Source: Thermovirgaceae bacterium
Lineage (GTDB): Bacteria > Synergistota > Synergistia > Synergistales > Thermovirgaceae
Reading direction: 5' to 3'
Length of the DNA: 21,896 nt
NCBI GenBank assembly: GCA_046542505.1
Contig: JBKHBH010000028.1
Span: forward strand, 1 to 21,896
In this document: one piece after another, positions 4,514 to 21,851 of the stretch
Position numbering within the stretch: position 1 is the stretch's first letter
Layout of the letters: each line of letters opens with the position of its first letter
Made by a program: the position numbers and the translations under genes
Notes under the pieces: model-generated
Seen by the model: the letters and a program-made list of their open reading frames with translations, nothing else
Told to the model about the DNA's origin: nothing
Databases searched by the model: none

Positions 4514-4714
4514 GAGTCAGGTGTCTGCACTTTTTGTTTTTTCAGTTTTCCTGTTAGCCTCTGGTGCCATTACACCAGGTTCTTGTCCTTCCCCAGCACG
4601 TTCTCAGATCTCCAACAGGCACGATTCCCCCGATTCGGATAGCCCGTAAAGTCTCCCTATCTTTTGGAGCTTCGCGCCGCTGAAACACCAGAGTCAAATG
4701 TACAGATTTGCCCC
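4514..4714 (-). mobile_element. Miniature non-autonomous element, copy 1 (possible Y1/RAYT-like transposase 3' remnant between inverted terminal motifs)
   Basis: Direct repeat of ~5530-5697. Minus strand reads FSGAKLQKIGRLYGLSESG / frameshift / NRACWRSENVLGKDKNLV*. Ends are GAGTCAGGTGTCTGCACTTTTTG (+) and GGGGCAAATCTGTACATTTGAC (-). Confidence 0.55.
4541..4708. repeat. Direct repeat copy 1 (partner 5530-5697)
   Basis: Gap-free, 134/168 nt identical by hand count. Core 4601-4708 is 95/108, with a 31-nt exact match at 4671-4701 = 5660-5690. Confidence 0.95.
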
Positions 4715-4785
4715 CTGGATACTGGAGACTGGCCATTACAGGGTCATGTTTTCGATTTCCAGATGTTTTGGACAGCTATGATCCG

Positions 4786-5133
4786 CTATATTTTTTCGTT
4801 CGCCAAAAGATCTTTCAATCTTTGGATCAGGGTAGGAAGATCTTCTTGGATAATATCCCAGAGAATATCCAGATCGACAGCATCATAACCATGGATCAGC
4901 CGGTTTCTGAGCCCGATCATTTCGGTCCACGGAATATCCGGATATTGTTCTCGGGTCTGGGAAGAAACTTTTGCCGCTGCCTCCCCAATTATTTCGACCA
5001 GTCTTGTGAGGGCCAACTCAAGCTTCCGGTCTGTCGCAAGCGCCTCTCTTGTTGTCTCGCTTGCAAGATTTTTCGCTTCTTCAGCATATTCCATCATATG
5101 TTTCAGTCTTGTGTGATCCTTAGGCTGCATCAT
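4786..5133 (-). CDS. hepT: HEPN/DUF86 (HepT-like) ribonuclease toxin
   Basis: EIIGEAA...IPWTEMIGLRNRLIHGY with an intact Rx4H motif plus the downstream Tyr. Start overlaps the MNT 3' end. Confidence 0.92.
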   Translation of the reverse strand: MMQPKDHTRLKHMMEYAEEAKNLASETTREALATDRKLELALTRLVEIIGEAAAKVSSQTREQYPDIPWTEMIGLRNRLIHGYDAVDLDILWDIIQEDLPTLIQRLKDLLANEKI

Positions 5134-5419
5134 AAATGACCTCGGCATGGAGCTGGACTTCCTCCCGGAAGTCTTTGCTCAGGAATCCTGGAGTATTAAG
5201 ATCTACCTTTCGTCCCAGAAGCTCCGACAACTCCTGTTCCAGAGCAAAAAACCTCAGGCCGACACGTTCCCCGGGCTCAAACTCAACCAGAACATCAACA
5301 TCGCTTTCGGGAGTGAAATCATCTCTCAGGACAGACCCGAAAAGGGCAAGACGACGGATTTTATTCCTCCGGCAGAACCTTACTATCTGCTCCTGTGGAA
5401 TTGTGATCTGGAGACCCAT
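5120..5419 (-). CDS. mntA: Minimal nucleotidyltransferase (MntA-like) antitoxin
   Basis: LFGSVLRDDFTPESDVDVLVEF (GSx10DxD) and LLGRKVDL. GAGGAGGT RBS lies upstream of ATG 5419. Confidence 0.92.
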   Translation of the reverse strand: MGLQITIPQEQIVRFCRRNKIRRLALFGSVLRDDFTPESDVDVLVEFEPGERVGLRFFALEQELSELLGRKVDLNTPGFLSKDFREEVQLHAEVIYDAA

Positions 5420-5451
5420 GGGGCGTGTCACCTCCTCTTTCTTGTTTCTTC

Positions 5452-5481
5452 AGTATATACAAGGTTTGTCAGCCTTGGTAA
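5452..5481 (-). promoter_or_regulatory. Possible promoter of the mntA-hepT operon
   Basis: Minus strand TTACCA-18 bp-TATACT upstream of the RBS. Confidence 0.4.
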
Positions 5482-5497
5482 TAATCCCGGCCAGCTA

Positions 5498-5703
5498 TCA
5501 GGTGTTAGACGACCTACGCCATTTACTGCTTTAGTTTTTCCATTAGCCTCTTGAGGCTTTTCCTCAGATCCTTGCCTGTTTCCACCATATTCTCAAATCT
5601 CCAGCAGCCACGTGTCCCCCGGTTCGGATAGCCCGTAGCGTCTCCCGATCTTTTGAAGATTCGCGCCGCTGAAACACCAGAGTCAAATGTGCAGGTTCCG
5701 TAC
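5498..5703 (-). mobile_element. Miniature non-autonomous element, copy 2 (more degenerate ends)
   Basis: Minus strand reads FSGANLQKIGRRYGLSEPG / same frameshift / TRGCWRFENMVETGKDLRKSLKRLMEKLKQ*. Ends are TCAGGTGT (5498-5505, shared with 4517-4524) and ...ACCTGCACATTTGAC (-). Confidence 0.5.
5530..5697. repeat. Direct repeat copy 2 (partner 4541-4708)
   Basis: Same alignment as copy 1, offset 989 nt. Confidence 0.95.
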
Positions 5704-5941
5704 ATTGGTAGTGTGCAGAGACTGTACCTGATATCCATCAAGGGCACACTCCCGAAATGTCGTTTTTGCTTCATCCATGCTGGCCAGATGGCTTTACACA
5801 GACAAATATATCATGGAGCACCCGGACACGCTGCCACGGCAGGATATATCAAAGTTCCGGGAACGACCCCCGCCTGGACTGAAGCTATGCCTGCCTTTAT
5901 GATGCACATGCACAAGTTCTGATTTTGATACGGAGGCTTGC

Positions 5942-6793
5942 ATGTTTTCAAAGGTCATTTGGCCCCTGAACCTGGAGGAACCCCAAAGCCGGCTCGACGG
6001 CGTGTTCGGCATGCTGAACACTCTTCCGGCTGATCATGTGTCGCTGCTTTACGTCGGAGAGGGGCGACACAACAATAATTCTTCCAGTGAAGATAAACTC
6101 AGAAGACTTCGCGACAGGCTCAGGGGGCACGGATTTAACGTGGAAACCGCCTTCAGAACGGGGCATGTCGCCACCGCTATATGTGGATTCGCAGAAAAAC
6201 AGGATGCCGATTTCATCATCATGCCCTGGAAGCCCAAATCCAGCATCCGCATCGCCCTTTTGGGAAGTGTGGTGCAAGATGTGGTCCGCCTCTCGAACAG
6301 AGCCGTAGCCGTCTGGAAATCAGGGACCCTTTCATTGAAATCCCCGGCAAAAGGTGTGAAAAACATCATGTACGCCACGGCTTTTCAGGCAATCGACAGA
6401 GACGTCATTCATTACCTCGGCCACAAAGCCATGAATGCCGAAAAACTTGTTCTCCTGCACGTGGGTGAAAGAGCTCCCGATCCCAGGGCAGAAGAAAACC
6501 GCCAAAGGAAGGTGCGGGACAACCTCGACCGCCTGGCCGGCGAGTGCTCCCTGCAATACGGACGGATAGAGACAATCTCAGTTCTAGGAAAACCCTCCCG
6601 CCAGATCGTCAAACAGGCACGATCGAAAGAGATCGACCTCGTCGTGGTTGGAAAACTGAACAATCCTGATACCTTCGGGGCAATGATGGGGTCCACGGCG
6701 GAGCAGCTTGTGCACAGTTCGCCATGTTCGCTGCTGGTCATTCCCAGGGGGGCGGCGGAAAAACGTGTGGATGATTCTCGAGAAAAGGACTGA
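5942..6793 (+). CDS. Universal stress protein with two USP domains
   Basis: GHVATAIC...ADFII...ALLGSVVQDVVR and GKPSRQIV...IDLVVVG...MMGSTAEQLVHSSPCSLLVIP. GGAGG RBS. Confidence 0.92.
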   Translation: MFSKVIWPLNLEEPQSRLDGVFGMLNTLPADHVSLLYVGEGRHNNNSSSEDKLRRLRDRLRGHGFNVETAFRTGHVATAICGFAEKQDADFIIMPWKPKSSIRIALLGSVVQDVVRLSNRAVAVWKSGTLSLKSPAKGVKNIMYATAFQAIDRDVIHYLGHKAMNAEKLVLLHVGERAPDPRAEENRQRKVRDNLDRLAGECSLQYGRIETISVLGKPSRQIVKQARSKEIDLVVVGKLNNPDTFGAMMGSTAEQLVHSSPCSLLVIPRGAAEKRVDDSREKD

Positions 6794-6798
6794 ACACG

Positions 6799-8322
6799 AT
6801 GTGGATCAAAGAGAACATGGTCTTTATTGTTTCACTCGTCATGGTGGGATTCGTCATAACCTTTGGAGTCGCAAGCCCGAAGGAATTTGATTTCATCTCA
6901 TCCATGATCCACGAGGGAATCCTCGACTATTTCAGCTGGGGTTACACGGTAGCCCCTTTCATCTTCCTGGTCTTCAGCCTCGTTCTGGCTTTCAGCAAAT
7001 ACGGATCCACGAAACTGGGCAAGGACAGCGAAAAACCACAGTACAGCTATTTCGCCTGGTTCAGCATGCTCTTTGCCGCCGGAATGGGGATCGGGCTCGT
7101 TTTCTGGAGCGTATCGGAACCCCTCATGCATTATGCCAACCCGCCGGCGGGAATCGCCGGATCATCGGCGGAATCGGCACGCTTTGCCATGAAGCACGTT
7201 TTCTTTCACTGGGGTCTGCAGCCCTGGGCTATTTATGTCGTCATGAGCCTGGCTATCGCCTATTTCTGTTTCCGCCGGGGGATGCCCACGCTTATCTCGA
7301 GCGCTCTTTATCCACTTTTGGGGGACAGAATCCATGGTTTCTGGGGTCAAGCCGTAGATATTCTGGCCGTTTTCGCCGTGGTGTTCGGTATCGCCACCTC
7401 TCTCGGTCTGGGAACCATGCAGATTTCCAGTGGCCTCGCCTACGTCTTTCCCTCCATCCAGGATACGCAGATTACGTGGTTTGCCATCATCGCCGTGGTT
7501 ACCGTCATGTACATGATATCCGCCATGCGGGGTCTCGACAGGGGCATACAGGTCCTCAGCCGAGCCAATATCGGCGTCGCGGCGACCCTGCTTCTGGCGA
7601 TGCTTTTCATCGGACCGACCACCTTTATCCTCAACGTTTTGATTACAACCCTGGGTGACTATTTTTCGTCACTTTTGTCCATGAGTCTCAACGCCAACCC
7701 TTACGAAGGGTATCGGTGGACCAAAAACTGGACGCTGTTTTTCTGGGCTACCTGGATCTCCTGGGCCCCTTTCGTAGGGCTTTTCGTGGCAAGCATTTCA
7801 AGGGGCCGGACGATTCGGGAATTTGTCCTGGGGGCCTTGCTGGTTCCGTCCCTTTTGACGTTTATCTGGTTTGCCGTTTTCGGCGGCGCCGCCTTCGACC
7901 TCCAGCTCAACCAGGGGTACGAAATAGCCGCAGAGACGGCCCAAAACGTATCCACAGGACTTTTCAGTGTCTTTGCCTACTTCCCGGCAAGCTGGCTTTT
8001 GACAGGCGTCGCCCTGCTTCTTCTCACCATATTCTTTGTAACCTCCGCCGATTCATCGACCCTTGTCCTTGCCATGATGACATCAAGGGGAGACCTGACC
8101 CCCCCGACTTACCGAAAGTTCGTCTGGGGCATCCTGCAGTCTTCCGTGGCGGCTATCCTGCTGGCCTCGGGAGGACTTGACGCCCTCCGCAAGATGGCAA
8201 TCTCCTCCGCACTGCCCTTTACGCTCATCATGCTCGTGCTCTGTTACTCCCTTCTCAAGGCCCTTCGCTACGAATACACCCATGAGCGGAAGCTCGCCAA
8301 TTACTCCGATCTTCAAGACTAG
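6799..8322 (+). CDS. BCCT family (betaine/carnitine/choline) transporter
   Basis: WFSMLFAAGMGIGLVFW, FFHWG.PWAIY, GIATSLG, WISWAPFVGLFVASISRGRTIREF, FFVTSADS. Confidence 0.96.
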   Translation: MWIKENMVFIVSLVMVGFVITFGVASPKEFDFISSMIHEGILDYFSWGYTVAPFIFLVFSLVLAFSKYGSTKLGKDSEKPQYSYFAWFSMLFAAGMGIGLVFWSVSEPLMHYANPPAGIAGSSAESARFAMKHVFFHWGLQPWAIYVVMSLAIAYFCFRRGMPTLISSALYPLLGDRIHGFWGQAVDILAVFAVVFGIATSLGLGTMQISSGLAYVFPSIQDTQITWFAIIAVVTVMYMISAMRGLDRGIQVLSRANIGVAATLLLAMLFIGPTTFILNVLITTLGDYFSSLLSMSLNANPYEGYRWTKNWTLFFWATWISWAPFVGLFVASISRGRTIREFVLGALLVPSLLTFIWFAVFGGAAFDLQLNQGYEIAAETAQNVSTGLFSVFAYFPASWLLTGVALLLLTIFFVTSADSSTLVLAMMTSRGDLTPPTYRKFVWGILQSSVAAILLASGGLDALRKMAISSALPFTLIMLVLCYSLLKALRYEYTHERKLANYSDLQD

Positions 8323-8388
8323 CTGTTTTTCCTTTCACGACTGAATTGCCCCGGAGCTCGCAGGCCTGAATTTTCCGAAAAATGCATC

Positions 8389-8417
8389 TTGACAGAGCGG
8401 TGCCACGCTCGTATGAT
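8389..8417 (+). promoter_or_regulatory. Sigma70 promoter of the GntR gene
   Basis: TTGACA-17 bp-TATGAT, near consensus. It lies downstream of the ORF-track ATG at 8382, so that ATG is probably not the start. Confidence 0.85.
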
Positions 8418-8421
8418 CATT

Positions 8422-8443
8422 TTGAATCCATTACTGGATACAA
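8422..8443. promoter_or_regulatory. Putative GntR operator
   Basis: TTGAATCCA-ttac-TGGATACAA, an 8/9 inverted repeat over the predicted transcription start. Confidence 0.6.
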
Positions 8444-8465
8444 CTTTGTGAAGAAGGTGGACTAC

Positions 8466-9179
8466 TTGCCCCGAATCACGGCTGAGCAGAAAGCCTATGA
8501 CGGGATCATCGATCTCATGCTCTCCAAGACTTTTGCGCCGGGAGACCGGCTCATGGAGACAGAACTTGCCGAGAAGCTCCAGGTCAGCCGGACGCCGGTC
8601 CGAAACGCACTCAGACAGCTTATCGCCGAAGGACTCCTGGAAACGGACCATCACAGGGGATGCCACATCCCGAGGCTCAACGCCCTTGACATGCAGCAGA
8701 CCTTCCAGGCCAGGATCTTCCTTGAAGGCAAGGCCGCCATGGAGGCGGCTCACCTTCGAACCGACGAAGACGTGTCAACTCTCAGAAGACTTCTCCAGCA
8801 GGAAAAAGAATTTTACAAAAACGGCGAAGTCAAGCTCTATACAGACGTCAACAAGAAGCTCCACCTCACCGTCGCCGCATTGAGCCGAAACACTTATATC
8901 GAAAAATTCGTCCGCCAGACTTTCTGGAGATCCGAACTCTATATTTTCTACTTTGACCGTTTCTACGCTCCGGAACTGTCCAAAGAACTCCTCAGGGACC
9001 CCCACAAATCCATCAGTTGCATCGAACACGAAAAGATCGTTTCCGCCATCGAAGCCCGTGACTCCACCGCGGCGGAAGTAGTCATGAAAGCCCATCTCCA
9101 GAGCACCCTTGATTACCTGTATCCCCGTTTCCGCGTGTACGGCACGACCGGCGCGGTCGGCCTTACCACGCAGGAATAG
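8466..9179 (+). CDS. GntR family transcriptional regulator (FCD domain)
   Basis: wHTH PGDRLMETELAEKLQVSRTPVRNALRQL; FCD LH...EHEKIVSAI...HL. Start taken as TTG 8466 after AAGGTGG; GTG 8448 is an alternative. Confidence 0.92.
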   Translation: MPRITAEQKAYDGIIDLMLSKTFAPGDRLMETELAEKLQVSRTPVRNALRQLIAEGLLETDHHRGCHIPRLNALDMQQTFQARIFLEGKAAMEAAHLRTDEDVSTLRRLLQQEKEFYKNGEVKLYTDVNKKLHLTVAALSRNTYIEKFVRQTFWRSELYIFYFDRFYAPELSKELLRDPHKSISCIEHEKIVSAIEARDSTAAEVVMKAHLQSTLDYLYPRFRVYGTTGAVGLTTQE

Positions 9180-9275
9180 ACATCAAATTCCCAAAAGACG
9201 GGAGGTGGGAAAGACACCCGACGCTCTCATGCACCTCACTGGAAAGGCCAAATCAGAAAGGAGAGTTTTCAGCTG

Positions 9276-10820
9276 ATGGATCATTACGGATTTTTATCTA
9301 TCCTCCCCCCGCTTGTTGCGGTCATACTGGCCGTCAAGTACAAGAACGTCATCATGGCCCTTTTCACGGGGTCTCTTCTCGGGACCTTCGTCCTGGCGAA
9401 GTGGAACCCCATTACCGCTCTTTCAATGCTCATCAAGGACTACATTTTCGTCCAGGCTGCCAGTTCCTATAACTCGAGCCTGCTGGTCATGATGGTCTTC
9501 ATCGGGGGCTTCGTCGGCGTGGTAACCCATTCCGGCGGTGCTGCGGCCTTTGCCAACTCCGTCGCCCACTGGATCAACAACCGCTTCAAGGCCCATCTTG
9601 CAGTGTGGTTCGCCGGCATAGCCATCTTTTTCAGTGATTCGGGGAATCCCCTGATCCTGGGCCCGACCTTTCAGCCCATTACGGACAAACTCAGGATGAG
9701 CCGCGAGAAACTGGCCTGGCTTCTGGACAGCACGGCGTCTCCGGTCTGCATCCTCATCCCCTTCATCGGGTGGGGAATCTACATCATGGGACTGATCAAG
9801 GAAGAATTCGACGGCGCGGGGATCGCCGAGTCGGAGTTCACGGCCTTTTTGAACGTCATCCCCTTTCAGTTCTACGCCCTGGGAACGTTGTTCATGATTC
9901 CCCTTGTGGCATACCTTGGATTCGAATTCAGCGCCATGTACCGGGCGGAGAAACGGACCATCGAGACAGGCCAGCCACTGTGGCCCGATGCCAAGCCAAC
10001 CAGGCCCGCCGTTGAAATAGACGAAAAGACGGGCGCCAAGGCCAGGGCATCCATGATGGTGCTCCCCTTGATCGTTCTTTTCGTCTGCCTTTTCGGTTTG
10101 CTTATTCCCCACGGGTTCCCCTTCAAGGCACCTCCCGGCGATGTTCTTCGCATGGCCCTCTGTTTCGGCTACTTCATGGGAGCCATTACCTGTATCGGGC
10201 TGATGGTGAAACACAAGGTCAAGACCGGCTCGGAAGCCTTCAAGATGTACATGGACGGCGCCAAGGAGATCGTGTTCATCCTGATGATCCTGGTATTGGC
10301 CTGGTCGCTGGGTTCGGTCTGCAAAGCCCTTGGTACGGCAAACTACATCGTCATGCTTACCCATGGGACGGTTCCCGGCTGGATCGTACCAGCACTGATC
10401 TTCATCACCGGCGCGGCCATCAGCTTCGCCACGGGATCATCCTGGGGAACCTTCGCCATCCTGATGCCACTGGCGATCCCCATGTCCATCTCTTTAGGTG
10501 CGCCCCTCTATGCGTCAATCGCAGCGGTTTTGAGCGGCGGCCTCTTCGGCGATCACTGTTCGCCGATTTCGGACACTACGGTTCTCTCGTCCATGGGTGC
10601 AGCCTGTGACCACATCGATCACGTCAAGACCCAGGTCCCCTACGCTCTTACCGTAGGCCTGGCAAGCGTCATAAGCTACCTCGTCGCCGGCTTCACAGGC
10701 ACGGCGATTACACTGGTGCTCGCCCTCGCACTGGTTCTGGTGTTTACCGTTCTTTTCAGCAAAATCTGGGGGGCCAGGATGCACAACCTTGTCTATACGG
10801 GAAGTCCGAGGGATAATTAG
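9276..10820 (+). CDS. NhaC-family Na+/H+ antiporter-like transporter (probable amino acid or derivative transporter)
   Basis: SILPPLVAV, SREKLAWLLDSTASP, ISFATGSSWGTFAIL, GGLFGDHCSPISDTTVLSS...HIDHVKTQVPYA. AAGGAG RBS. Confidence 0.93.
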   Translation: MDHYGFLSILPPLVAVILAVKYKNVIMALFTGSLLGTFVLAKWNPITALSMLIKDYIFVQAASSYNSSLLVMMVFIGGFVGVVTHSGGAAAFANSVAHWINNRFKAHLAVWFAGIAIFFSDSGNPLILGPTFQPITDKLRMSREKLAWLLDSTASPVCILIPFIGWGIYIMGLIKEEFDGAGIAESEFTAFLNVIPFQFYALGTLFMIPLVAYLGFEFSAMYRAEKRTIETGQPLWPDAKPTRPAVEIDEKTGAKARASMMVLPLIVLFVCLFGLLIPHGFPFKAPPGDVLRMALCFGYFMGAITCIGLMVKHKVKTGSEAFKMYMDGAKEIVFILMILVLAWSLGSVCKALGTANYIVMLTHGTVPGWIVPALIFITGAAISFATGSSWGTFAILMPLAIPMSISLGAPLYASIAAVLSGGLFGDHCSPISDTTVLSSMGAACDHIDHVKTQVPYALTVGLASVISYLVAGFTGTAITLVLALALVLVFTVLFSKIWGARMHNLVYTGSPRDN

Positions 10821-10835
10821 AATTACAAGCGTATC

Positions 10836-10875
10836 GGGCGGATGCGGCCAGAACGACGCCGCTTCCGCCTTTTTT
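10836..10875 (+). terminator. Rho-independent terminator-like hairpin between transporter and dehydrogenase
   Basis: GGGCGGAtGCGGC-loop-GCCGCtTCCGCCT followed by TTTTT. Confidence 0.7.
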
Positions 10876-10910
10876 CAGACTTTTTAAGACCCTCAAGGAA
10901 GGTGTTTATT

Positions 10911-12236
10911 GTGAAAGAAATTCTCGTATTGGGAGCCGGGCGGGTAGCCAAACCGTGCGTGCAGTATCTGCTCCGGAACACACCCCATCATGTCACCGTT
11001 GTCGACATCGACGACAGGAACTTCGAGAGGGTGACGGAAAATCATGAACGAAGCACCGCTTTCATCGGAGACGCTGCACAGGACACCCAAGGCATCATCG
11101 AAAAGGTCAAACCCGACATCCTGATCAACCTGCTCCCTCCACATCTCATGGCTCCCGTGGCCGCCCTCTGTGTCGAGACCGGCGTCAATTACATCAACCC
11201 CTCCTACATCAAGGACGACATGCGGGAACTGGACGCCCCGGCCAAAGAAAAGGGGCTCCTGCTTTTGTGCGAACTGGGACTGGATCCCGGCATCGACCAC
11301 ATGTCCGCCGCCAAGACCGTCAGGGAAATCCACGACGAAGGCGGAACGGTGGAATCTTTCTGGTCCTGCTGCGGAGCCCTTCCCTCACTCAAGGACAACA
11401 CGAACCCCTTCGGATACAAGCTGTCCTGGGCGCCGGGGTCGCTGATCGGAGCCAGCAAACGGACCGCCCGGATCATGGAAGACGGGGAAACCGTCGTGAT
11501 GCCTGACGGAGAGACCTTCAGGCACCCCCACATGGTTCACGTGGAAGGTCTCGGCTGGTTCGAGGAATACGCCAATGCCGATTCCCTTCCCTACGTCGAT
11601 CTCTATGGAATGCCGGAAGTGAAAAACGTCTACCGCGGAACTTTCCGCTACGTGGGATGGTCGGAAACCATCGCCAAGATGAACGAACTGGGCCTTTTTG
11701 AAGAGGAAAGAAGCGACCTCAGCGGTCTTACCTATAGAAAGTTCACGGCAAAGCTTGCCGGGGCAAAAGACGGAGAGGCCGCCGAAGACGCGCTGCTTCG
11801 TTTTACGGGACGCGAGTCCTTCTCTTCGGTGGCACTCAAACTCAAGTGGCTCGGGCTCCTGGACGACAGGAAAATTCCATTCGAATCGGGAAGCCCCAGG
11901 GATGTGGTGACCTCGCTCTATGCGGAAAAACTCGTCTACAGCGAGGGCGAACAGGACCTGGTGGTCATGGAGCACCGCTACGTGGCTCATTTCCCGGAAA
12001 CCGGCAAGCGCATGCAGATCAAGTCGACGCTGATCGATCATGGCCAGGCCGATGGAGAAACATCCATCGCCCGCACCACGGGAATTCCCCCGGCCATCGG
12101 GACCGCACTGTTCCTCGACGGCAAAATCTCCGCGAAGGGCGTCCAGGCGCCTGTTCTGCCCGAGATTTACGAGCCCTCGCTGAAGCTGCTGGAAAACGAG
12201 GGGATCCGGTTCACCGAGCGAAGGAAAGAAATCTAG
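10911..12236 (+). CDS. Saccharopine dehydrogenase (glutamate-forming, Lys9/AASS-SDH-like) family protein
   Basis: Rossmann ILVLGAGRVA; ELGLDPGIDHM; CGALP...NPFGYKLSW; YANADSLPY; RGTFRY; IARTTGIP. GTG start after AAGGAAGGTG. Confidence 0.93.
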   Translation: MKEILVLGAGRVAKPCVQYLLRNTPHHVTVVDIDDRNFERVTENHERSTAFIGDAAQDTQGIIEKVKPDILINLLPPHLMAPVAALCVETGVNYINPSYIKDDMRELDAPAKEKGLLLLCELGLDPGIDHMSAAKTVREIHDEGGTVESFWSCCGALPSLKDNTNPFGYKLSWAPGSLIGASKRTARIMEDGETVVMPDGETFRHPHMVHVEGLGWFEEYANADSLPYVDLYGMPEVKNVYRGTFRYVGWSETIAKMNELGLFEEERSDLSGLTYRKFTAKLAGAKDGEAAEDALLRFTGRESFSSVALKLKWLGLLDDRKIPFESGSPRDVVTSLYAEKLVYSEGEQDLVVMEHRYVAHFPETGKRMQIKSTLIDHGQADGETSIARTTGIPPAIGTALFLDGKISAKGVQAPVLPEIYEPSLKLLENEGIRFTERRKEI

Positions 12237-13984: not shown

Positions 13985-14578
13985 ATGGAGCCGGATATAT
14001 TTGCTTTCCTGTCGTACGTAATCGTCGTTTCCTTCACGCCCGGACCCAACAACATCCTCGTCATGTCCTTCGCGGCGAAGTTGGGATATCGAAAGACTCT
14101 GCATTATATTGCCGGTGTCTTCGTCGGCTTCGCCACCTTGACACTCACAGCGGCCTATTTCAACATCTTTTTGTCCAGGCTTCTGCCGGCGCTGGCCCCG
14201 TACCTGAAAACAGCGGGCGCCTTTTACGTGCTCTTTCTGATGTACAAGGTCCTGACCTCCAGACCCGGCGGGGAATCAAAAGTCCTTTCGAAACTCTGTT
14301 CCTTTCCGGCGGGAGTGGGGCTCCAGTTTCTGAATGTCAAGGGGATCCTCTATGCCCTCACCGTGACCTCGGCCTTTATCCTGCCTTTTTCCGAATCCGC
14401 GACGGTGATCGCTTTCGCCGCCCTTTTTCTGGCCGGAGTGGCAATCACGAGCAACATTCTCTGGGCCCTGTTCGGCACGGTCTTCCAGGTGGCCCTTGCC
14501 AGGCATTACAAGATCTTCAACGGCATCATGGGGCTTCTGCTCCTCTACGTGGCCTTGTCAATCCTCGGCTGGGTCTAG
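13985..14578 (+). CDS. LysE/RhtB family amino acid exporter
   Basis: SFTPGPNNIL and GLQFLNVKG motifs, about six TM helices, AGGAGG RBS before ATG 13985. Confidence 0.92.
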   Translation: MEPDIFAFLSYVIVVSFTPGPNNILVMSFAAKLGYRKTLHYIAGVFVGFATLTLTAAYFNIFLSRLLPALAPYLKTAGAFYVLFLMYKVLTSRPGGESKVLSKLCSFPAGVGLQFLNVKGILYALTVTSAFILPFSESATVIAFAALFLAGVAITSNILWALFGTVFQVALARHYKIFNGIMGLLLLYVALSILGWV

Positions 14579-14595
14579 GAAACCCTACCTCCGGT

Positions 14596-17500
14596 TCACC
14601 CTTTCACCCGCCTCACCAGGTCATCGAGAGTGACATAAACCACCGGGACGAAGACCATGGTGAGCACCGTCCCGAAAATGAGTCCCGTGGCGGCGACAAT
14701 ACCCAGGGGACTCATGCGCTCCAGACCCACGGCCCACTCCATTACAAGCGGCGTGAGTCCAACGATGGTGGACGTGGCCGTCATGAGGATCGGGCGGGTC
14801 CGGACCTTCACCGAACGCATCACGGCGAGCGCCCTGGAAGCTCCCCGTTTCCGGGACTCGATGATGAAATCCAGAAGAAGGATGCTGTTGTTGACGATGG
14901 TTCCCGAAAGCAGGATGAACCCCATGGCGGCGTTCATGGACATTGACTTGTCGAAAAGAAGCAGGCCCCAAAGACCGCCGGCCACAGCCGGAGGCACGAT
15001 GGACAGGATGGTCAGAGGTATGGAGAATGAATGGAAAAGCGACACCAGCAAAAAATACAAAAGCACCACACCCAGAAGCAGGGCCTTGCCGAGCATCCCG
15101 ATGCTTTCGCCGAGGTCGGCCGCGCTTCCGGCAAGCCCTATTTCGTACCCGTCGGGAAGTTCCATGCCCTCGAGGCGGTTTCCGGCCTCCGACGTGACGT
15201 GACTGATCGTCCTCCCCCGGTTCACGCCGGTGACATCGATGGTGTTTTTGAGATTCTCCCTGGTAATCATGGGCGCCTCGGGTGCGGAAGAAACCTTTGC
15301 CAGAGCCGAAAGCGGGACCGGCCCCTGATTCGTGGCTACCAGGATTCGCTGCACATCCCTTTCTGTTTCGAGAAAAGATTTCCCGTAAAAGACCCTGACA
15401 GGAATGTCGGAAAAATCCGGAAGCCTCATGAAAGTGGCCGTCCGGCCGTCGATGGCCGAGGAAACCTCCCCCGCCACCTTCACCGGGGATGTGCCGTATC
15501 CGGCGGCAAGGAGGGGGTCCACGGTGATGTGGCGCATTTCCTTTTCGACGTGCCAGGTCCGCTGGACATCCGTCAGCCCTGCCGTACCCTCAAGAGCCGA
15601 CATGACTTTTTCCGCGAGGCTGTCGAGAACCATGGTATCGGGCCCGCTGATGATGATATCCAGCGGAGCCTTCGTAGTGGCCTTGGGGGTCGCGCCGTAT
15701 TCCGTGAGACGTGACCAGCGAAGCCCCTCGATGTCTTCAAAGTCCTCCCTCCACCGTCCGAGGATCTCCCAGATGGTTTCATCCCTTTTGGTGCGGTCAA
15801 CCATCTTGACCTTGATCCGTCCCGACTGGGGCGTCGAGCCGCCGCCGAAACTCACCGCCTGTGGCTCGGATCCAACCTCGGATGAGACGGCCAGAACGGT
15901 TTCGTCGGCAAGGATGCGTCGCTCCATGGCTGAAAGGGTTTTCTCCACGGCCTGCGGAGACCTCCCAGCCGGCGTCTCGAACTGAATGAAGGCGACCCCC
16001 GTATCCATGGACGGCATCATTTCGCCCCCCAGAAGGGGCATCACCAGTTTGAAGGTGAGCACCACGAAGAGGCCGAAGGCCGCCAGGGTGACGAGGCTGT
16101 GCCGCAGGGCGAGCTTGAGGAGATCCAGGTAGAACCTGACGAGCCTCTTCAGGATGGCGTCGAAGCGGGCGGCTGTCCTTTCGAGCACTCCTACTGCCTT
16201 TGGTCGTTCTTTCTTCAAGACGAAAGTTGCCAAAAGCGGGATGACCGTCAGTGCCGCCACGAGCGAGGCCGTCAGGGTGGCGAAGATCACCATGTTGAGG
16301 GGCCTCAGGACACGGCTGGTGTACCCCGAGGAACCCATGACGGGAAGCAGGACGATGACAGTGGTCATCATACCCGCCGTGATCGAGAGGGCCACTTCCT
16401 TCGCGCCCGTCACGGCTGAGGCCCTGATGTCTTTTTGACCGGTGGCGGCGTGCACCCTGTAGAGGTTTTCCAGCACCACCACCGAGGCGTCCACCACCAT
16501 GCCGACGGCCACGATCATGCCCGTCAGGGTCACCATGTCAATGTTGTAGGGGCTCGCCCAGAGCACGCCGAGGCTGAACAAAAAGGACAGGGCGATGCTC
16601 ACCGACGAGATCAGGGCGGCCCGGAGGTTCGCCAGGAAAAGGAAGATGACCACCACCATGAGGATGATGGCCTGTACCAGTGACTTGTACATCCCGGAGA
16701 TGTTGAGCTCGATCAGGGGTTTCTGGTTGTCGGTAACCTCGACGCCGATGTTCCGGTAGCGCGCTTCAATTTCGGGGATCTTCCCGAGCACCCTGTCGAC
16801 GGTGCGGATGGTGTCAGACCCTTCACTGCGAAGCACGTTCAGCGCTATGGCCGCCTTGCCGTTTCCATGATAGAGGCTCCTCCTCGGAATTTCCCCCAGG
16901 GAAATTTCCGCCACGTCTCCCAGAAGGATGGAACCTCCAGGCGCGGAACCCACAACAGTGTTTTCTATTTCCCCGGTATCGGAAAAAAGCGACGACATCG
17001 TGAAATGGATTTCCGAATCGTCCAGGGTCAATCGGCCCGACGGGATGGAGACATTCTGCGCGGCCAATGCTCCTGCAACGGATTCGAGTGACAGCCCCGT
17101 TGCGGCAAGGCGGTCACGGTCAAGGGCCACTTCCATCGACGGCTGGTGCCCTCCGAAGACCTCTACGTCGGCGACGCCCGCAGTGGACAGAAGCTCATCC
17201 CTTATGGGGTTTTCGGCAAGCAGCCGTATCTCCTGGAGTGTCGGTGCATTGTCACCCTCGGGGAAAAGGGCAATGGTCATGATGGGAGCCGTGCGGTTCG
17301 TCACGCTGTATACGAGGGGTTCCGCCGTTCCCGAGGGAAAGCGGGCCGTCACGGCGGCAAGGGCGTTTCGGACTTCGGTGACGGCCTCGGAGACGTCCTT
17401 TTCGTAGCGAAATTCCGCCCGGACCGAAGAGACCCCGTCAGCGGTGGTGCTGGTGATATTGACGAGGCCCTCCAGGCCGCTGAGCTCACGCTCAAGAGGC

Positions 17501-17694
17501 TCCGTCACCGTCTGCGTCATGTCAGGCGCCGATGCTCCCTGCCTCACTGTGACCACCAGGACCTGGGGTGGCGTGGTATCTGGAAAAAGGTCTCTTGGAG
17601 TGCTGAAAGCTCCGGCCAGACCCAGGACGGCCACAGCACAGGCAATGGCTGTAACAAGATACGGATGTTCCACGGACCACCTGGTGAGGTTCAT
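14596..17694 (-). CDS. RND efflux transporter permease subunit (AcrB/AcrD/AcrF-like)
   Basis: 1032 aa; DLFPD..PP, GMVVDASVVVLEN, GTIVNNSILLLDF, RTRPILMT. Confidence 0.96.
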   Translation of the reverse strand: MNLTRWSVEHPYLVTAIACAVAVLGLAGAFSTPRDLFPDTTPPQVLVVTVRQGASAPDMTQTVTEPLERELSGLEGLVNITSTTADGVSSVRAEFRYEKDVSEAVTEVRNALAAVTARFPSGTAEPLVYSVTNRTAPIMTIALFPEGDNAPTLQEIRLLAENPIRDELLSTAGVADVEVFGGHQPSMEVALDRDRLAATGLSLESVAGALAAQNVSIPSGRLTLDDSEIHFTMSSLFSDTGEIENTVVGSAPGGSILLGDVAEISLGEIPRRSLYHGNGKAAIALNVLRSEGSDTIRTVDRVLGKIPEIEARYRNIGVEVTDNQKPLIELNISGMYKSLVQAIILMVVVIFLFLANLRAALISSVSIALSFLFSLGVLWASPYNIDMVTLTGMIVAVGMVVDASVVVLENLYRVHAATGQKDIRASAVTGAKEVALSITAGMMTTVIVLLPVMGSSGYTSRVLRPLNMVIFATLTASLVAALTVIPLLATFVLKKERPKAVGVLERTAARFDAILKRLVRFYLDLLKLALRHSLVTLAAFGLFVVLTFKLVMPLLGGEMMPSMDTGVAFIQFETPAGRSPQAVEKTLSAMERRILADETVLAVSSEVGSEPQAVSFGGGSTPQSGRIKVKMVDRTKRDETIWEILGRWREDFEDIEGLRWSRLTEYGATPKATTKAPLDIIISGPDTMVLDSLAEKVMSALEGTAGLTDVQRTWHVEKEMRHITVDPLLAAGYGTSPVKVAGEVSSAIDGRTATFMRLPDFSDIPVRVFYGKSFLETERDVQRILVATNQGPVPLSALAKVSSAPEAPMITRENLKNTIDVTGVNRGRTISHVTSEAGNRLEGMELPDGYEIGLAGSAADLGESIGMLGKALLLGVVLLYFLLVSLFHSFSIPLTILSIVPPAVAGGLWGLLLFDKSMSMNAAMGFILLSGTIVNNSILLLDFIIESRKRGASRALAVMRSVKVRTRPILMTATSTIVGLTPLVMEWAVGLERMSPLGIVAATGLIFGTVLTMVFVPVVYVTLDDLVRRVKG

Positions 17695-18887
17695 TCAGCC
17701 GTCACCTCGCGTCCCTCGGAAAGTTCCGCCCACCCATAAGGACTGTGGACAACCACCACGTCGCCCTCGGCAAGTCCTTCCACGGCAGCGGTCTTCCCGC
17801 TTATTGCCAGCACCTGAACCCCCTGTCGTTTCAGGCTTCCGTCGGAAACAACGTAGACAAAGGGTTTTTCATGGCCGGGAATGACAGCTTCCTTGGGGAC
17901 GAGAAGGACATTTTCATACCTTCCTGTCGCAACGTTGACCGTCATGGAGACACCGCGGCCAAGAGCGACTTCGGCACCTCCTGTGACCTCAAGAACTTCC
18001 GCTTCCGCCCTTGCCATCCTGGATCCGTCCACCGAGGGGGAAACCCTGCGGACTTCGCCGGTCACCTTCCCCTCGCCAAGACGTCCCCAGACGGTCCGAC
18101 CCTTTTTGATGAGGGGCAAATCCTCCTGGGGAACCCTGAAAACCAGTTCCCAACCATCCCTGCTCTCAACGGAAAAAAGCGGTGCGCCGATTGTCGCAAG
18201 GTTCCCGGGTTCCGCCCCGCTTTTTGTGACAACGCCGTCAAAGGGGCTTCTGATGGTGTAATAGCCGACCCGCTCCTTCAGAACCTCTGCCTCCGCCTGG
18301 AGAGAGGCCCGTCTCGACGCCAGGGCCTTGATACGATTTTCAGCTTCGCCTAGGCCTGATTTCGCCTCGACTTGCCTTACCCTGGCCGCCTCTGCATCGG
18401 ACTTCGGAATGGCTCCCTCGGCAACGAGATATTCCGCGCGATCAGCTTCTTTTGCCCAGTATTGGGCGTTGGCCTGCAGCGAGAATTCGCGCGCCCTGAG
18501 TCCTTCAAGCTCCGATGCGGCCTCGGATATTCTCGCGTCCAATGCATCCAGCTGGTGGTGAATCTCGCTGCCGTCAAGAACAGCCAGGACGTCTCCCGTG
18601 GAAACCTCGTCACCGATATCGGCCTTGACCTCGAGAATCGTGGCCGTCACCTTCGGCGCGATTTCCGCCGACTTGGCCGGTTCGAGGAAGGCAAGATACT
18701 GATTGGTTACCTGCAGGTTTCCTCGCAACACCTTTTGCGTCAGGACCCTCAATGGCCTGGGGCGGTATTCCCCCGCTTCTTCGAGTTGTCCGGCACGGAG
18801 GCGGAGCAAGAGGAACGCGCCGACAAGCAGGAGAACCAATACAAACAGCCATCGTCCCAGGTGTTGTCTTTTCTTCGATTTACTCAT
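17691..18887 (-). CDS. RND periplasmic adaptor (membrane fusion protein)
   Basis: N-terminal TM, lipoyl half-motifs (VKADIGDEVSTGDVLA; IRSPFDGVV), long helical hairpin, LLVPKEAV. ATG 18887 overlaps the TolC 3' end. Confidence 0.94.
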   Translation of the reverse strand: MSKSKKRQHLGRWLFVLVLLLVGAFLLLRLRAGQLEEAGEYRPRPLRVLTQKVLRGNLQVTNQYLAFLEPAKSAEIAPKVTATILEVKADIGDEVSTGDVLAVLDGSEIHHQLDALDARISEAASELEGLRAREFSLQANAQYWAKEADRAEYLVAEGAIPKSDAEAARVRQVEAKSGLGEAENRIKALASRRASLQAEAEVLKERVGYYTIRSPFDGVVTKSGAEPGNLATIGAPLFSVESRDGWELVFRVPQEDLPLIKKGRTVWGRLGEGKVTGEVRRVSPSVDGSRMARAEAEVLEVTGGAEVALGRGVSMTVNVATGRYENVLLVPKEAVIPGHEKPFVYVVSDGSLKRQGVQVLAISGKTAAVEGLAEGDVVVVHSPYGWAELSEGREVTAE

Positions 18888-20208
18888 TGCCCCGACCCCC
18901 TGTGACAAAAGCTATCCGTGCATCGGCAAGAGCCGTTTCCGCCCTGGCCGCTGAAAGATTCGCCATGGCCGAAAGCCAGGCCGCATGGGCCGAGAGCACG
19001 TCGGTGGTGGTCCCCTTCCCCGCACGGAACTTGAGCTTTTCTATCCGGAGCCCTTCCTCGGCCGATTCGAGAGCGGTCCGGGTGACGGCTGTCTTTCGCT
19101 CAGCAACGTCGTAGGCCCTCAGGGCCTCCGAAATTTCATACTCTATCTGTGTCGCAAGTCCGCGTGCTTCTGCTTCGGCAGCCGCCTTTTCGGACTTCGC
19201 CTGGCGGGCCCTGGCGCTTGAAATACCTCCATCCCAAAGGGGAAATTCGACGTAAAGTTCCGCATCGGTTCTGGACTCGTTGCTCCCGCCGCCGGTGCTC
19301 CTGTAGGCATGAACACCCCTGAGGGAAATTTCCGGATTTGTGGCGGCTTTCGCCGCACGCAGGCCGTACTCCCTGGCATCTATGGTGCGAAGGGCCGAGA
19401 TGTAATCGCTTCTGGACCGGAGGGCCTTTTCAGTGAGGTCCTGTTCATCCGGAACAGTCCCGACTTCGGGAAACTTCCCGGAAAGATCGTAGTTTTCGGC
19501 CTTTTCCCTTTCCCCCATGACAAGCAGGAGGTCTTCCTTCAGGCTTTCCAGCTCGTGGCGCCGGGTCAAAAGCTGTTCCTCCGCCGAAGCTGCTTCGGCT
19601 GCGACGCGGAGTGCATCGACCCGGGCGGCCTTGCCCGCCTCAAGCATGGCCAGTACGTCCTTTTCGTGAAGCCTGAGCGACTCCAGAGCCGTCTCGAGAG
19701 CCGAGACGGCCTCTTTCTGGGCAAGGATCAGGTAAAAAAGCCTCGTCACGTCATAGCGGAGACGTTCTTCAAGACGCTCAAGGGACGCCTCGGCGGCTTC
19801 CTGCAGTTTCCTTTCCGACTTCGTCATGTTCCTGGTTTTACCGCCGTCAGAGAGGGGTATCTCAAGAATGGCTGTCCCCTCGGCGAATTCATCGTCATAA
19901 ATACCCCGTTCTCCGTCATACCTGGCCGGCCAGAGCCGCTGCTCTTCCCCGGCCCAGAGGTACTTCCCCGCCAGCGAAACCTTGGGCTTCAACCCCGCCG
20001 CAGCTTCATCAACCCGGGCAGAAGCCGCTTCAACCCGATTCCGCAGGGCTTCGAGCTCGTGATTGCCCTCCAGGGTCCTTTCGAGGCACTCCTCGAGGGT
20101 CAGCGTCTCCTGAGCCATGACCCTGCCGGACATCACCACGAAAAGAAAGACCAGGATCATCAATATATTTGGAATGTTTCTGTTCTTTTTGTGGATCACC
20201 CGTTCCAT
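18880..20208 (-). CDS. TolC family outer membrane efflux protein
   Basis: Signal peptide then LTLEECLERTLEGN, PLSDGG / PLWDGG, KFRAGKGTTTDVLSA. Start chosen at ATG 20208 after GGGGG; exact start uncertain. Confidence 0.92.
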   Translation of the reverse strand: MERVIHKKNRNIPNILMILVFLFVVMSGRVMAQETLTLEECLERTLEGNHELEALRNRVEAASARVDEAAAGLKPKVSLAGKYLWAGEEQRLWPARYDGERGIYDDEFAEGTAILEIPLSDGGKTRNMTKSERKLQEAAEASLERLEERLRYDVTRLFYLILAQKEAVSALETALESLRLHEKDVLAMLEAGKAARVDALRVAAEAASAEEQLLTRRHELESLKEDLLLVMGEREKAENYDLSGKFPEVGTVPDEQDLTEKALRSRSDYISALRTIDAREYGLRAAKAATNPEISLRGVHAYRSTGGGSNESRTDAELYVEFPLWDGGISSARARQAKSEKAAAEAEARGLATQIEYEISEALRAYDVAERKTAVTRTALESAEEGLRIEKLKFRAGKGTTTDVLSAHAAWLSAMANLSAARAETALADARIAFVTGGRGNE

Positions 20209-20233
20209 ATCCCCCACGCTCCCGCAACACTTT

Positions 20234-20250
20234 TGTGATTTACAATTCAC
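20234..20250. promoter_or_regulatory. Putative TetR operator, copy 2 (between tetR and tolC)
   Basis: TGTGATTTACAATTCAC, 14/17 identical to 20874-20890. Confidence 0.55.
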
Positions 20251-20265
20251 CAGGGTGAAAAATTT

Positions 20266-20859
20266 TTATGCCCCGACACCATCGATAAATTCTTCCCAGG
20301 CTCTTTTGGCCGTTTGCCCCATGTCGACCCCTCCCCCGCTTATGGCAAGGAGCAGGGCCGTGTGCTGGATAAGGCTGACGTAAACCATGGCCGCCGCTTC
20401 GGAGTTTGTTTTTCCGCAAAGCTGGCCTCCCGCCTTTGCTTCTTCTATAAGCCCGGCGACGGCCTCCCTGAGAAACCTGTGGATATCCAGTATGAGGCGG
20501 CGCATTTTCGCGTCGCCGAAGGCGGCGTCCTCTGAAAGAACGATAAGGGGCATCACCGGCGACTCTCTCATGATGTCCAGATGCCTTTCCATGATGGTCC
20601 TGAGCCTCTGGAGGGGATCGGCCGCCTCTTTTTTTGAAACCGCCAGATGATTTTCCAGGGTCGCTCGAATGCGTCCCACCAGGGCCAGGACAAGCTCCTG
20701 CTTGCCCGAAAAATGTCTGTAAAAGGCCGACGGTACCAGCCCGACCTTGCTCGCCACGTCGGGGATGCGCAGGTTTCTGAGTCCTTTTTTCCTGACGATG
20801 TCCATCGCCGCCTGGAGGATCTGTTCCCGCCTGACTTCCGTATCAAGCCGCTCCGCCAT
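20266..20859 (-). CDS. TetR/AcrR family transcriptional regulator
   Basis: RREQILQAAMDIV...VASKVGLVPSAFYRHFSGKQEL. AGGAGTG RBS before ATG 20859. Confidence 0.95.
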   Translation of the reverse strand: MAERLDTEVRREQILQAAMDIVRKKGLRNLRIPDVASKVGLVPSAFYRHFSGKQELVLALVGRIRATLENHLAVSKKEAADPLQRLRTIMERHLDIMRESPVMPLIVLSEDAAFGDAKMRRLILDIHRFLREAVAGLIEEAKAGGQLCGKTNSEAAAMVYVSLIQHTALLLAISGGGVDMGQTAKRAWEEFIDGVGA

Positions 20860-20872
20860 ATTTTTCACTCCT

Positions 20873-20920
20873 ATGTGAGTTATTATTCACATCATAGCAA
20901 AGAGTCTTCGTTTTCGCGAA
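20873..20920 (-). promoter_or_regulatory. tetR promoter with overlapping palindromic operator
   Basis: Palindrome ATGTGAGT-tatt-ATTCACAT (20873-20892) abuts a minus-strand extended -10 TGcTATGAT (20891-20899). The -35 (TTCGCG) is weak. Confidence 0.7.
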
Positions 20921-20932
20921 CACCCAGAGATC

Positions 20933-21039
20933 GGGGTCACCTGTACATTTGACAAAATCAATGTGAGAGAAGAACACCCAAAGGAGGAACTTACTGATTT
21001 CCGGAGCCCGGGAATCTGCAAAAGTCCAGGTCTGGCACC
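20933..21039. repeat. Short segment bounded by inverted GGGGTCA-type motifs
   Basis: GGGGTCACCTGTACATTTGACA (+, 20933-20954) faces GGTGCCAGACCTGGACTTTTGC (-, 21018-21039). The same motif occurs at 4693-4714 and 5682-5703. Confidence 0.5.
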
Positions 21040-21201
21040 GTAAATTTGGGACTCTGTGAGTTTGGGTACTGAAAGTGCACCGATCTTTTTTCCTCGAACT
21101 GACGTGTTCTCGTTAGAATACAGAAGAAAGGCTCTGTCTGTAGTGATAACGTTTGCTTTCGGCAGCCCGGATTGTAATTTTAAAAAAGGAGCGCGAAGCT
21201 C

Positions 21202-21747
21202 ATGGACAATATCGCAGATCTTGAGATCCGAATGCCGGTAACAGAAGAAGAAATTGATGCATGCTCACTGCTGATGAGCCGGACCGACCCCTGGCTGACC
21301 CTGGGACGGACATATGACGAGTCCCGCAAACTGTTCACCGATCCACAAAAGGAGGTTTTCATCGCTGTTGAAAGCAATCGGCTGGCCGGTTTTCTCGTTC
21401 TCGATCTCAACGGGCCGTTCAAAGGCTATATCCAGTCCCTTTGCATTGTTCCCTCCAGACGGAGTGCAGGATTGGGCAGCAAGATGATCAAATTTGCAGA
21501 GAACCTGATTTTTGAGATCTCCCCTAACGCCTTTATTTGCGTGTCCGATTTCAATCCACGGGCAAAAGCCCTTTACCAGCGGCTTGGATACAAGGCAGTC
21601 GGGGAACTGCCTGATTTCTTCGTATCGGGAAAAACAGAGATTCTCATGAGAAAGACTACAGGCCCGATACAGTCCTTCCGTCCAAGGAGCAAGAGAGCGG
21701 GGTTCAAAGGTCCAGGAAACACGAGAGGAATGCACATGGAATGTTAA
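21202..21747 (+). CDS. GNAT family N-acetyltransferase
   Basis: Motif A LCIVPSRRSAGLGSKMI and motif B VSDFNPRAKALYQRLGY. AAGGAG RBS. Confidence 0.92.
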   Translation: MDNIADLEIRMPVTEEEIDACSLLMSRTDPWLTLGRTYDESRKLFTDPQKEVFIAVESNRLAGFLVLDLNGPFKGYIQSLCIVPSRRSAGLGSKMIKFAENLIFEISPNAFICVSDFNPRAKALYQRLGYKAVGELPDFFVSGKTEILMRKTTGPIQSFRPRSKRAGFKGPGNTRGMHMEC

Positions 21748-21851
21748 ATGTTCAGACTTACTGTTTTTGGAAATAGAGTCATTGCGACATCCCTCGATCA
21801 TTTGAAAGAACATCGGGGTCAGACACTCTTTCAAAAATTCAGGCCTGAACA
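21742..21851. repeat. Cluster of degenerate GGGGTCA-type motifs downstream of the GNAT gene
   Basis: AGTAAGTCTGAACATTTAACA (-, 21742-21762), GGGGTCAGACACTCTTTCAAA (+, 21815-21835), TGTTCAGGCCTGAATTTTT (-, 21833-21851). ATCGGGGTCA occurs at both 20930 and 21812. Confidence 0.4.

Follow-up and report, generated by a model that had tools for sequence, protein, structure and literature searches.

The window analysed here is the entire 21,896-base contig C64 of G000, a Thermovirgaceae assembly (GCA_046542505.1; 2,142,610 bases, 142 contigs, 93.5% complete), in which a short repeat beginning GGGGTCA lies on both sides of a toxin-antitoxin (TA) pair and again upstream of a GNAT gene. The TA pair consists of an MNT-type nucleotidyltransferase antitoxin gene (5120..5431, minus strand, 103 aa; Pfam PF01909, 54.5 bits, and PF18765) and a HepT-like toxin gene (4786..5148, minus strand, 120 aa; PF01934, 95.4 bits), which overlap by 29 nt as is characteristic of MNT/HepT pairs. 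We assign a probability of about 0.85 to the reading that the repeat represents the degraded terminal inverted repeat (TIR) of a TIRtron and that the window holds decayed, non-autonomous derivatives of this known but little-studied class. In such an element, a single gene for a tyrosine transposase of the Y1/HUH type, resembling the transposases associated with repetitive extragenic palindromes (REP; RAYT) and ending in a DnaA-type helix-turn-helix (HTH) domain, would lie between two inverted TIRs; the gene is called TIRYT. The comparison set comprised 19 genomes of the Thermovirgaceae (Synergistales), many of them incomplete and all of them kin, so that they are non-independent; G001, G002 and G004 are congeners of G000, and G006, G007, G009 and G015 are sister-genus relatives.

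Transposase remnants and repeat copies in the window

The window contained no intact transposase gene and held three non-autonomous relics, namely two mini-elements of ~200 nt and one gene-less doublet of ~110 nt. In the repeat scan, the TA pair proved to be flanked by the two copies (4541-4708 and 5530-5697, 80% identical) of a 168-nt direct repeat, whose edges are formed by two of the best sites of the original prediction. Both copies began abruptly at a forward copy of the motif and ended at a reverse copy. Because it is bounded by motif copies in this way, each 168-nt copy is regarded as a mini-element composed of a repeat, the last ~165 nt of a gene and an inverted repeat. In minus orientation, the two copies aligned with the 3' ends of 320-333-aa open reading frames (ORFs) in G009, G006, G015, G007 and G025, in which the stop codon is directly followed by the reverse complement of the motif, and, among 61 related genomes searched at the DNA level, sister genera carried the 168-nt repeat at 71-77% identity.

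In mini-element 1, the 5' TIR (4693..4716, minus strand) was the best-preserved copy of all, with a score of 22.1 bits. The coding remnant next to it (4541..4692, minus strand) consisted of the frameshifted last ~55 codons of the TIRYT gene, corresponding to the HTH tail; it showed 74-77% nucleotide identity to G009, G006, G015 and G007, and its tblastn matches were split between two frames. The 3' TIR (4514..4536, plus strand) was degenerate, with a small insertion, and was placed by positional homology, its model scores being at noise. Mini-element 2 contained a 5' TIR of 14.0 bits (5682..5708, minus strand), a transposase 3'-end remnant (5530..5681, minus strand) recognised by the 80% repeat identity, by alignment and by tblastn, and a degenerate 3' TIR (5497..5527, plus strand) ~70 nt upstream of the MNT start, which was missed by the models and found by alignment only. 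In G009 and G015, the homologue of this last repeat stands between the intact transposase gene and the same TA pair. The third relic, a decayed gene-less doublet between the TetR and GNAT genes (20930..21044, plus strand), was composed of a 5' repeat at 20933-20953 (+), a spacer of ~64 nt and a 3' repeat at 21018-21041 (-). With only the last ~55 codons left, and these frameshifted, the window carries derivatives and not a TIRtron. The "hypothetical" ORFs at 4554-4736 and 5523-5774 (minus strand) are annotation artefacts of the transposase remnants and of the DUF488 remnant described below.

The motif family exceeds chance by a wide margin, as assessed from its own 13-mer core and from relatives. 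The core occurred 3 times in the whole assembly, each time in this contig; two of these copies sit within the 168-nt direct repeat, which leaves 2 independent occurrences against ~0.13 expected genome-wide by our own arithmetic. A weight matrix built from relatives only (25 instances, zero window rows; null of 300 Markov-1 windows) gave 3 window matches above 10 bits against 0.043 expected, at 4690-4717 (-; 22.1 bits), 5679-5706 (-; 14.0 bits) and 21827-21854 (-; 14.9 bits). The doublet scored 9.0 bits at 21014-21041 (-) and 7.7 bits at 20929-20956 (+), where a 2-nt deletion lowers the ungapped score. Genome-wide, the same matrix returned just 5 matches above 10 bits, 3 of them in this contig.

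The original prediction had listed nine sites as one motif family, of which five (4514+, 4714-, 5703-, 20933+ and 21039-) are true family members. Site 4514+ scored at noise (10.2 bits, E 1.7; 4.2 bits in a second model) and is counted by positional homology only, because its location is precisely that of the 3' repeat behind the transposase stop codon in relatives. A sixth site, not listed earlier, at ~5497-5527 is a degenerate copy recognised by position only. The expected placement, intergenic and in inverted pairs, was found for all confirmed sites. Site 21762- was at noise (2.3 bits) and is unsupported, and 21815+ matched over the outer half only (4.3 bits, E 1.3).

Site 4741+ is not a member, being part of a solo copy of a different, 55-60-nt dispersed repeat (4731..4790, plus strand) with copies in G001, G002, G005, G007 and contig C135 of G000. 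This repeat begins with GGGTCA; its second copy in G000 lies at C135:9187-9242 (further loci L117-L122), at least 7 copies occur in G001, several of them at contig ends, and metagenome contigs carry it in multiple copies with varied flanks. Its likeness to the 3' flank of a transposase paralogue in contig C28 of G000 was weak (best 5.3 bits, E 0.24) and is a lead only.

The membership of 21851- is ambiguous, since this site, despite its 14.9 bits, lies across the terminus, or the target, of the IS110-family element with which the contig ends. The repeat-like stretch (21827-21854) is fused there to the terminus of that element (from ~21846; feature 21827..21896, no strand assigned). The contig end at 21846-21896 is the terminus of a multi-copy element (DEDD_Tnp_IS110 and Transposase_20) with four near-identical copies in G004 (L037, L039, L041, L042) and others in G003 (L038) and in contig C134 of G000 (L040). 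The DNA immediately outside its end was alike in all copies and bore a faint likeness to the TIR motif, and the element may target such TIR-like repeats.

The transposase gene and its terminal repeats in related genomes

In G009, G006, G015, G007 and G025, a forward copy of the motif was located just upstream of the transposase start codon and an inverted copy at the stop codon. A species-wide genome collection gave 69 homologous loci, 22 of which had a near full-length match with flanks on both sides and were examined. Inverted arms of 12-37 nt were present at the gene ends in 22/22 of these loci, most of them beginning (G)GGGTCA, and the hosts included Thermovirgaceae/Synergistaceae, Geobacter, Desulfuromonadales, Aminicenantes, Omnitrophota, Planctomycetia, Scalindua and Dethiobacter, among others. 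The association with an HUH-type enzyme that had been proposed for the motif was thus borne out, as the motif flanks a Pfam Y1_Tnp gene in inverted orientation across many phyla. The outer end of the TIR, judged from the alignment of 29 instances and the arms of the 22 loci, fits GGGGWSAS. TIRYT elements are widespread, homologues with GGGGTCA-type ends being found in Synergistota, Geobacter, Aminicenantes, Omnitrophota, Planctomycetota and Bacillota.

The full-length protein of relatives (320-333 aa) matched Pfam Y1_Tnp (PF01797) with 41.7-58.7 bits against a cut-off of 23. Its best NCBIfam family was the REP-associated tyrosine transposase (NF047646; 73.8-78.8 bits), the equivalog cut-off of 80 being missed by 4/4 proteins scanned. 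The HUH histidines (H-x-H), the catalytic tyrosine and the N-P of the R-Y-x-x-L-N-P motif, and a W-S-S motif were invariant in 10/10 aligned homologues. An AlphaFold model built from this 10-homologue alignment had a mean pLDDT of 80.4; in a fold search, it matched the E. coli RAYT 4er8 first (E 1.1e-6, TM 0.73 on target), followed by the ISDra2, IS200 and IS608 transposases. The C-terminal tail of the model matched the DnaA DNA-binding domain 3pvp (TM 0.76, rmsd 2.2 over 95 columns). By sequence, Bac_DnaA_C was detected at sub-threshold level only (12.5-13.3 bits), and a PDB sequence search with the transposase gave no meaningful match. A second paralogue, 38-44% identical (68% in two congeners), is present in many family genomes and is represented in G000 by the gene on C28; the motif model found nothing beside it.

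The dispersal of the motif was scanned in the 19 family genomes with a sequence-only model of 29 instances (E <= 0.1), and it was present in 16/19. A transposase match of at least 280 aa was found in nine genomes (motif counts in brackets), namely G002 (18), G006 (21), G007 (14), G009 (21), G013 (10), G015 (10), G016 (25), G017 (8) and G018 (28), and in G008 (22) the gene was present as halves at contig ends. The remaining genomes had lower counts: G000 4, G001 6, G003 0, G004 1, G005 1, G010 0, G011 6, G012 2 and G014 0. The number of motifs tracked the full-length gene, with 8-28 copies in the ten gene-bearing genomes and 0-6 in the nine others, which is a pattern among kin and not a test. 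Within single genomes, the paralogues shared 65-86% identity with the query, and none of the genes was seen in several identical copies.

The repeats of the relatives occurred beyond the gene ends as well. Doublets formed perfect 24-25-bp DNA hairpins (z about -12), and single TIRs folded no better than shuffled sequences (z -0.2 to -2). TIR clusters were found at orthologous positions in two ~94%-identical congeners, with small indels within the clusters. The genes between copies included TA-like, Fic, GNAT, methyltransferase and AAA_14/DUF4143 genes; copies also bordered a whole 6-kb RND pump operon, a four-gene redox block, molybdopterin enzyme and formamidase genes, and LeuA-like, SAICAR synthase, M20 peptidase, TRAP transporter and OmpA genes. 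This distribution is that of an intergenic repeat of the REP/REPIN type, as known for TIR families from earlier descriptions, and not that of cassette boundaries.

Deletion derivatives were also found outside the window. G001 carries a similar mini-element whose junction lies within ~6 nt of that in the window, and G009:C50 carries another deletion variant. No target-site duplication was seen by eye at the doublet 20930-21044, at the G001 mini-element or at two perfect doublets of relatives. At L046 (G002:C47:3519-3840), three TIR-bearing units are arranged in tandem with a 144-nt period, each 71% like the mini-element interior, which looks like local amplification of mini-elements in the manner of bacterial interspersed mosaic elements (BIME). 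The family offers a natural decay series from the full gene through the 3'-remnant mini-element and the doublet to the solo TIR, and the Thermovirgaceae are clean material for its study, with intact genes, TIRs that are perfect over 25-26 nt, and doublets that form hairpins in the sister genomes.

The 1.2-kb block around the toxin-antitoxin pair

The two mini-elements and the TA pair belong to a block of 1,221 nt (4506..5726, minus strand), which contains mini-element 2, MNT/HepT, the unrelated short repeat and mini-element 1. The congener G002 is collinear with the window at 3982-4505 and 5727-14582 (83-89% identity) and lacks 4506-5726. In its place are 365 nt of a DUF488 gene that is intact in G002 (Pfam; C44:626-1015); in the window, this gene is reduced to a start stub of ~16 codons (5727..5774, minus strand). 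The left breakpoint (4505/4506) lies 8 nt outside the 3' TIR of mini-element 1 and the right one (5726/5727) ~18 nt outside the 5' TIR of mini-element 2, so that, as anticipated, the breakpoints of the one strain-to-strain indel fall near the motif. The outermost two TIRs are inverted, and the hexamer ACTGTA is present at both inner edges of the block (4507-4512 and 5721-5726). This pair may be a target duplication or a chance match; G002 has no single ACTGTA copy, because 365 nt differ there. In public metagenome runs, of which contigs only were searched, no contig joining 4505 to 5727 and no empty-site allele was seen. A short oil-field contig joins 4698 to 5060 through 29 TIR-like letters, with 30 letters on one side and a 90% likeness threshold, and nothing is concluded from it.

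The same TA pair occurs in several contexts. In G002, it is 92% identical, ~7 kb away, and embedded in a second, truncated HepT; a degenerate repeat stands upstream of it but not downstream, and ~45 nt are duplicated locally. In G009 and G015, it comes after the intact transposase gene, an order that matches mini-element 2, MNT, HepT in the window, and in G008 it lies between two direct motif copies of about 32 nt. From these contexts, the TA pair has travelled with the 3' repeat. Adjacency of MNT/HepT to the transposase gene was seen in 2/69 homologous loci, and the two are 99.87% identical and count as one observation. The loci concerned, L027 (G009:C91) and L030 (G015:C1:404286-409541), share this identity over 5,256 nt across two genera, and the stretch carries the TIRtron together with MNT/HepT, GNAT, methyltransferase and Fic genes.

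How the block arose can be read in more than one way. Ordinary recombination or illegitimate joining within a variable island rich in junk DNA, with the TIR relics as bystanders that mark old insertions, is the strongest competitor, although we consider it rather unlikely. The region is mosaic, G004 being entirely without window 4482-12783; fragments of another repeat and the IS110 element are nearby; the G002 TA pair sits inside a truncated gene beside a duplication; and the block replaced 365 nt, so the insertion was not clean. Against this explanation, both breakpoints lie close to the outermost inverted TIRs and ACTGTA stands at both block edges. A further reading is a composite, TIR-bounded transposon, in which TIRYT, acting on the outermost inverted TIRs, would have moved both mini-elements and MNT/HepT into the DUF488 gene and left ACTGTA as a 6-bp direct repeat; we hold this to be improbable. 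If it were true, TIRtrons could carry passenger genes and shuffle small accessory modules, and the TA pair might stabilise the element. The block is a single candidate for a TA module carried as a passenger by TIR ends.

The surroundings of the block support the description of the contig as a mosaic accessory region. In the closed genome G004 (L019, G004:C1:162703-166202), a 176-aa ORF (3978-4508 in the window) abuts a 369-aa ORF (12835-13944), and window 4482-12783 is therefore a variable island. The missing 8.3 kb comprise both TA pairs, Usp, BCCT, GntR, a Na+/H+ antiporter-family gene and saccharopine dehydrogenase. The second TA locus (12329-12746) contains a whole HepT (12387-12746, Pfam) and an MNT reduced to its last ~60 nt, so the second HepT would be an orphan toxin gene; in the counterpart G002:C44:7545-8925, MNT is whole and HepT is halved by the first TA pair. 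Positions 2577-2683 and 3982-4088 form a direct repeat of 107 nt with 71% identity; a fragment resembling the 3' end of the membrane-anchored 176-aa ORF lies 1.4 kb away, between unannotated ORFs without Pfam match. Further along are an RND efflux operon with TetR (14596-20868) and the GNAT gene (21202-21747), both assigned by Pfam, and the other window genes with Pfam assignments are transport and metabolic genes. No DNA-level match to window 19500-21830, the TetR/GNAT end, was found in any relative, so the insertion site of the doublet is without comparison.

Interpretation and comparison with known systems

Under the TIRtron reading, the motif would be the ~26-nt TIR of a TIRtron family resident in the Thermovirgaceae, with the 3' TIR beginning at the stop codon of the TIRYT gene. 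The same TIRs would also exist in doublets that lack the gene and have only a short spacer between 5' and 3' TIR, and in intergenic clusters, like REPIN and BIME. The cognate gene was probably lost from G000 or left out of its assembly, and the window would keep decaying derivatives, namely two mini-elements resembling miniature inverted-repeat transposable elements (MITE), each with the last ~165 nt of the gene, and the short doublet. In the ancestor, MNT/HepT would have stood directly downstream of a TIRtron, as it still does in G009 and G015, and it would since have come to lie between two mini-elements in a TIR-bounded 1.2-kb block that replaced most of the DUF488 gene. By analogy with the biochemistry of RAYT and IS200/IS605 enzymes, the transposase would nick and rejoin single-stranded DNA at the TIR ends and its HTH tail would bind the TIR.

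Several observations weigh against this interpretation. The own genome, at 93.5% completeness, has no full-length cognate gene, only a 41%-identical paralogue at C28:803-1672; the predicted cognate enzyme therefore exists at full length in relatives and not in G000, and for this reason the window copies are regarded as relics. The motif is not dispersed in the own genome either, its 5 matches above 10 bits being about the Markov null and only their concentration in one contig non-random. In both mini-elements, the 3' TIR has decayed beyond the reach of the models and is identified by positional homology alone, and the DNA fold of the window doublet was no better than that of shuffled sequences (z -0.76). 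Because the block replaced 365 nt and is no simple insertion, transposition is not the only way in which it could have formed. The near identity of the G009 and G015 loci reflects either recent transfer or a binning error, which in both cases leaves fewer independent contexts. Finally, a full-text literature search found no bench work on TIRYT or TIRtrons, the matches listed being computational studies only.

The original prediction had regarded each motif as the boundary of a small mobile gene cassette, captured or shuffled by an HUH enzyme in an integron-like manner, and this is now very unlikely. In its favour are the recurrence of the same MNT/HepT pair (81-92% nucleotide identity) in different contexts in G000, G002, G008 and the G009/G015/G012 group with the motif upstream each time, the direct copies around the pair in G008, and the arrays of small accessory genes between motifs in relatives. 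However, the motifs equally border the RND pump operon, metabolic blocks of several genes and genes with housekeeping roles; the basic unit is a gene-less inverted doublet, a MITE, and not one site per cassette; the orthologous TIR clusters of the two congeners point to vertical inheritance; and the TA pair adjoins the enzyme gene at so few loci, while the G002 TA unit has the motif on one side only, within a complex duplication. The GNAT gene was rejected as a second shared cassette, since the TIR-flanked GNATs of the window and G009 were only 29% identical. A role of the motif as an operator or promoter element, or as a structured leader RNA of the downstream genes, is scarcely credible: by our own reading, the motif holds a -35-like hexamer and a short palindrome, and each 168-nt repeat, read in minus orientation, stands ahead of a gene, but these repeats are coding remnants whose RNA folds were no better than shuffles (z -1.58 and -0.28), and inverted motif copies stand at both ends of the transposase gene across phyla. 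A riboswitch or other structured leader was rejected for the 168-nt repeat, a gene remnant that had no Rfam match at the gathering threshold or at E up to 10, and sigma-70 (-35) and sigma-54 promoter readings of the motif were rejected for poor spacing and a poor -10 region, again by our own reading.

The repeats were compared with four known systems. Integron cassettes are similar in that they form chromosomal arrays whose small accessory genes, often TA pairs, alternate with short, imperfect inverted-repeat structures. They differ in that the repeats here stand at both ends of a Y1 gene of their own, are found next to operons and housekeeping genes as well, and show no order of one site per cassette; the best match to an integron integrase in the own genome (TIGR02249) reached 60.3 bits against a cut-off of 265, attC sites not being searched as such. 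The IS200/IS605 family has the same HUH/Y1 fold, with ISDra2, IS200 and IS608 as the next-best fold matches, and non-autonomous deletion derivatives of it exist. According to the portion of text consulted in PMC3333891, these elements have no terminal inverted repeats and carry subterminal hairpins on one strand, whereas TIRs are present here; moreover, the gene copies within one genome were diverged instead of being several near-identical copies as expected.

The REPtron, a RAYT (TnpA-REP) gene with REP, BIME or REPIN sequences (Ton-Hoang et al. 2012, PMC3333891; Bertels & Rainey 2011, PMC3116915), is closer. It is similar in providing the closest solved fold (4er8), in its low gene number (one or few per genome) combined with repeats dispersed between genes, and in its inverted hairpin-forming doublets, tandem clusters and repeats that outlast the gene. 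In some E. coli strains, a REPtron locus is replaced by a hicAB TA operon, as stated in the part of PMC3333891 consulted. A REPtron is defined by a palindromic repeat with a conserved 5' GTAG; in contrast, the single repeat here is not a self-complementary palindrome, and only inverted pairs make hairpins. The protein is also twice as long, with an HTH tail, and misses the NCBIfam equivalog cut-off, and the copy numbers are in the tens and not the hundreds.

The closest agreement was with TIRtrons and their TIRYT genes. In the sections consulted, TIRtrons are described as RAYT-like genes between TIRs with GGGGWSAS, in moderately abundant TIR families occurring as singles, dimers and clusters (Di Nocera, De Gregorio & Rocco 2013, PMC3733652), and most TIRYTs are placed in TnpA-Y1 subclass 2.1 with Bac_DnaA_C/HTH tails (Quentin et al. 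2018, PMC6006769). In the consulted parts of PMC3733652 and PMC6006769, there was no mention of 3'-remnant mini-elements or of Synergistales members, and "Synergist" gave 0 matches in PMC3733652. The relatives of the window have the Y1/HUH gene, the framing TIRs, GGGGWSAS, the C-terminal HTH and the repeated TIR family, and the two systems share the RAYT-like Y1/HUH core with a Bac_DnaA_C-like HTH, the GGGGWSAS inverted ends and the occurrence as singles, dimers and clusters. The window differs from the described elements in two respects: it has internally deleted derivatives and a gene-less doublet in place of an intact gene, and a link between a TA pair and the 3' TIR exists in one lineage of the Thermovirgaceae.

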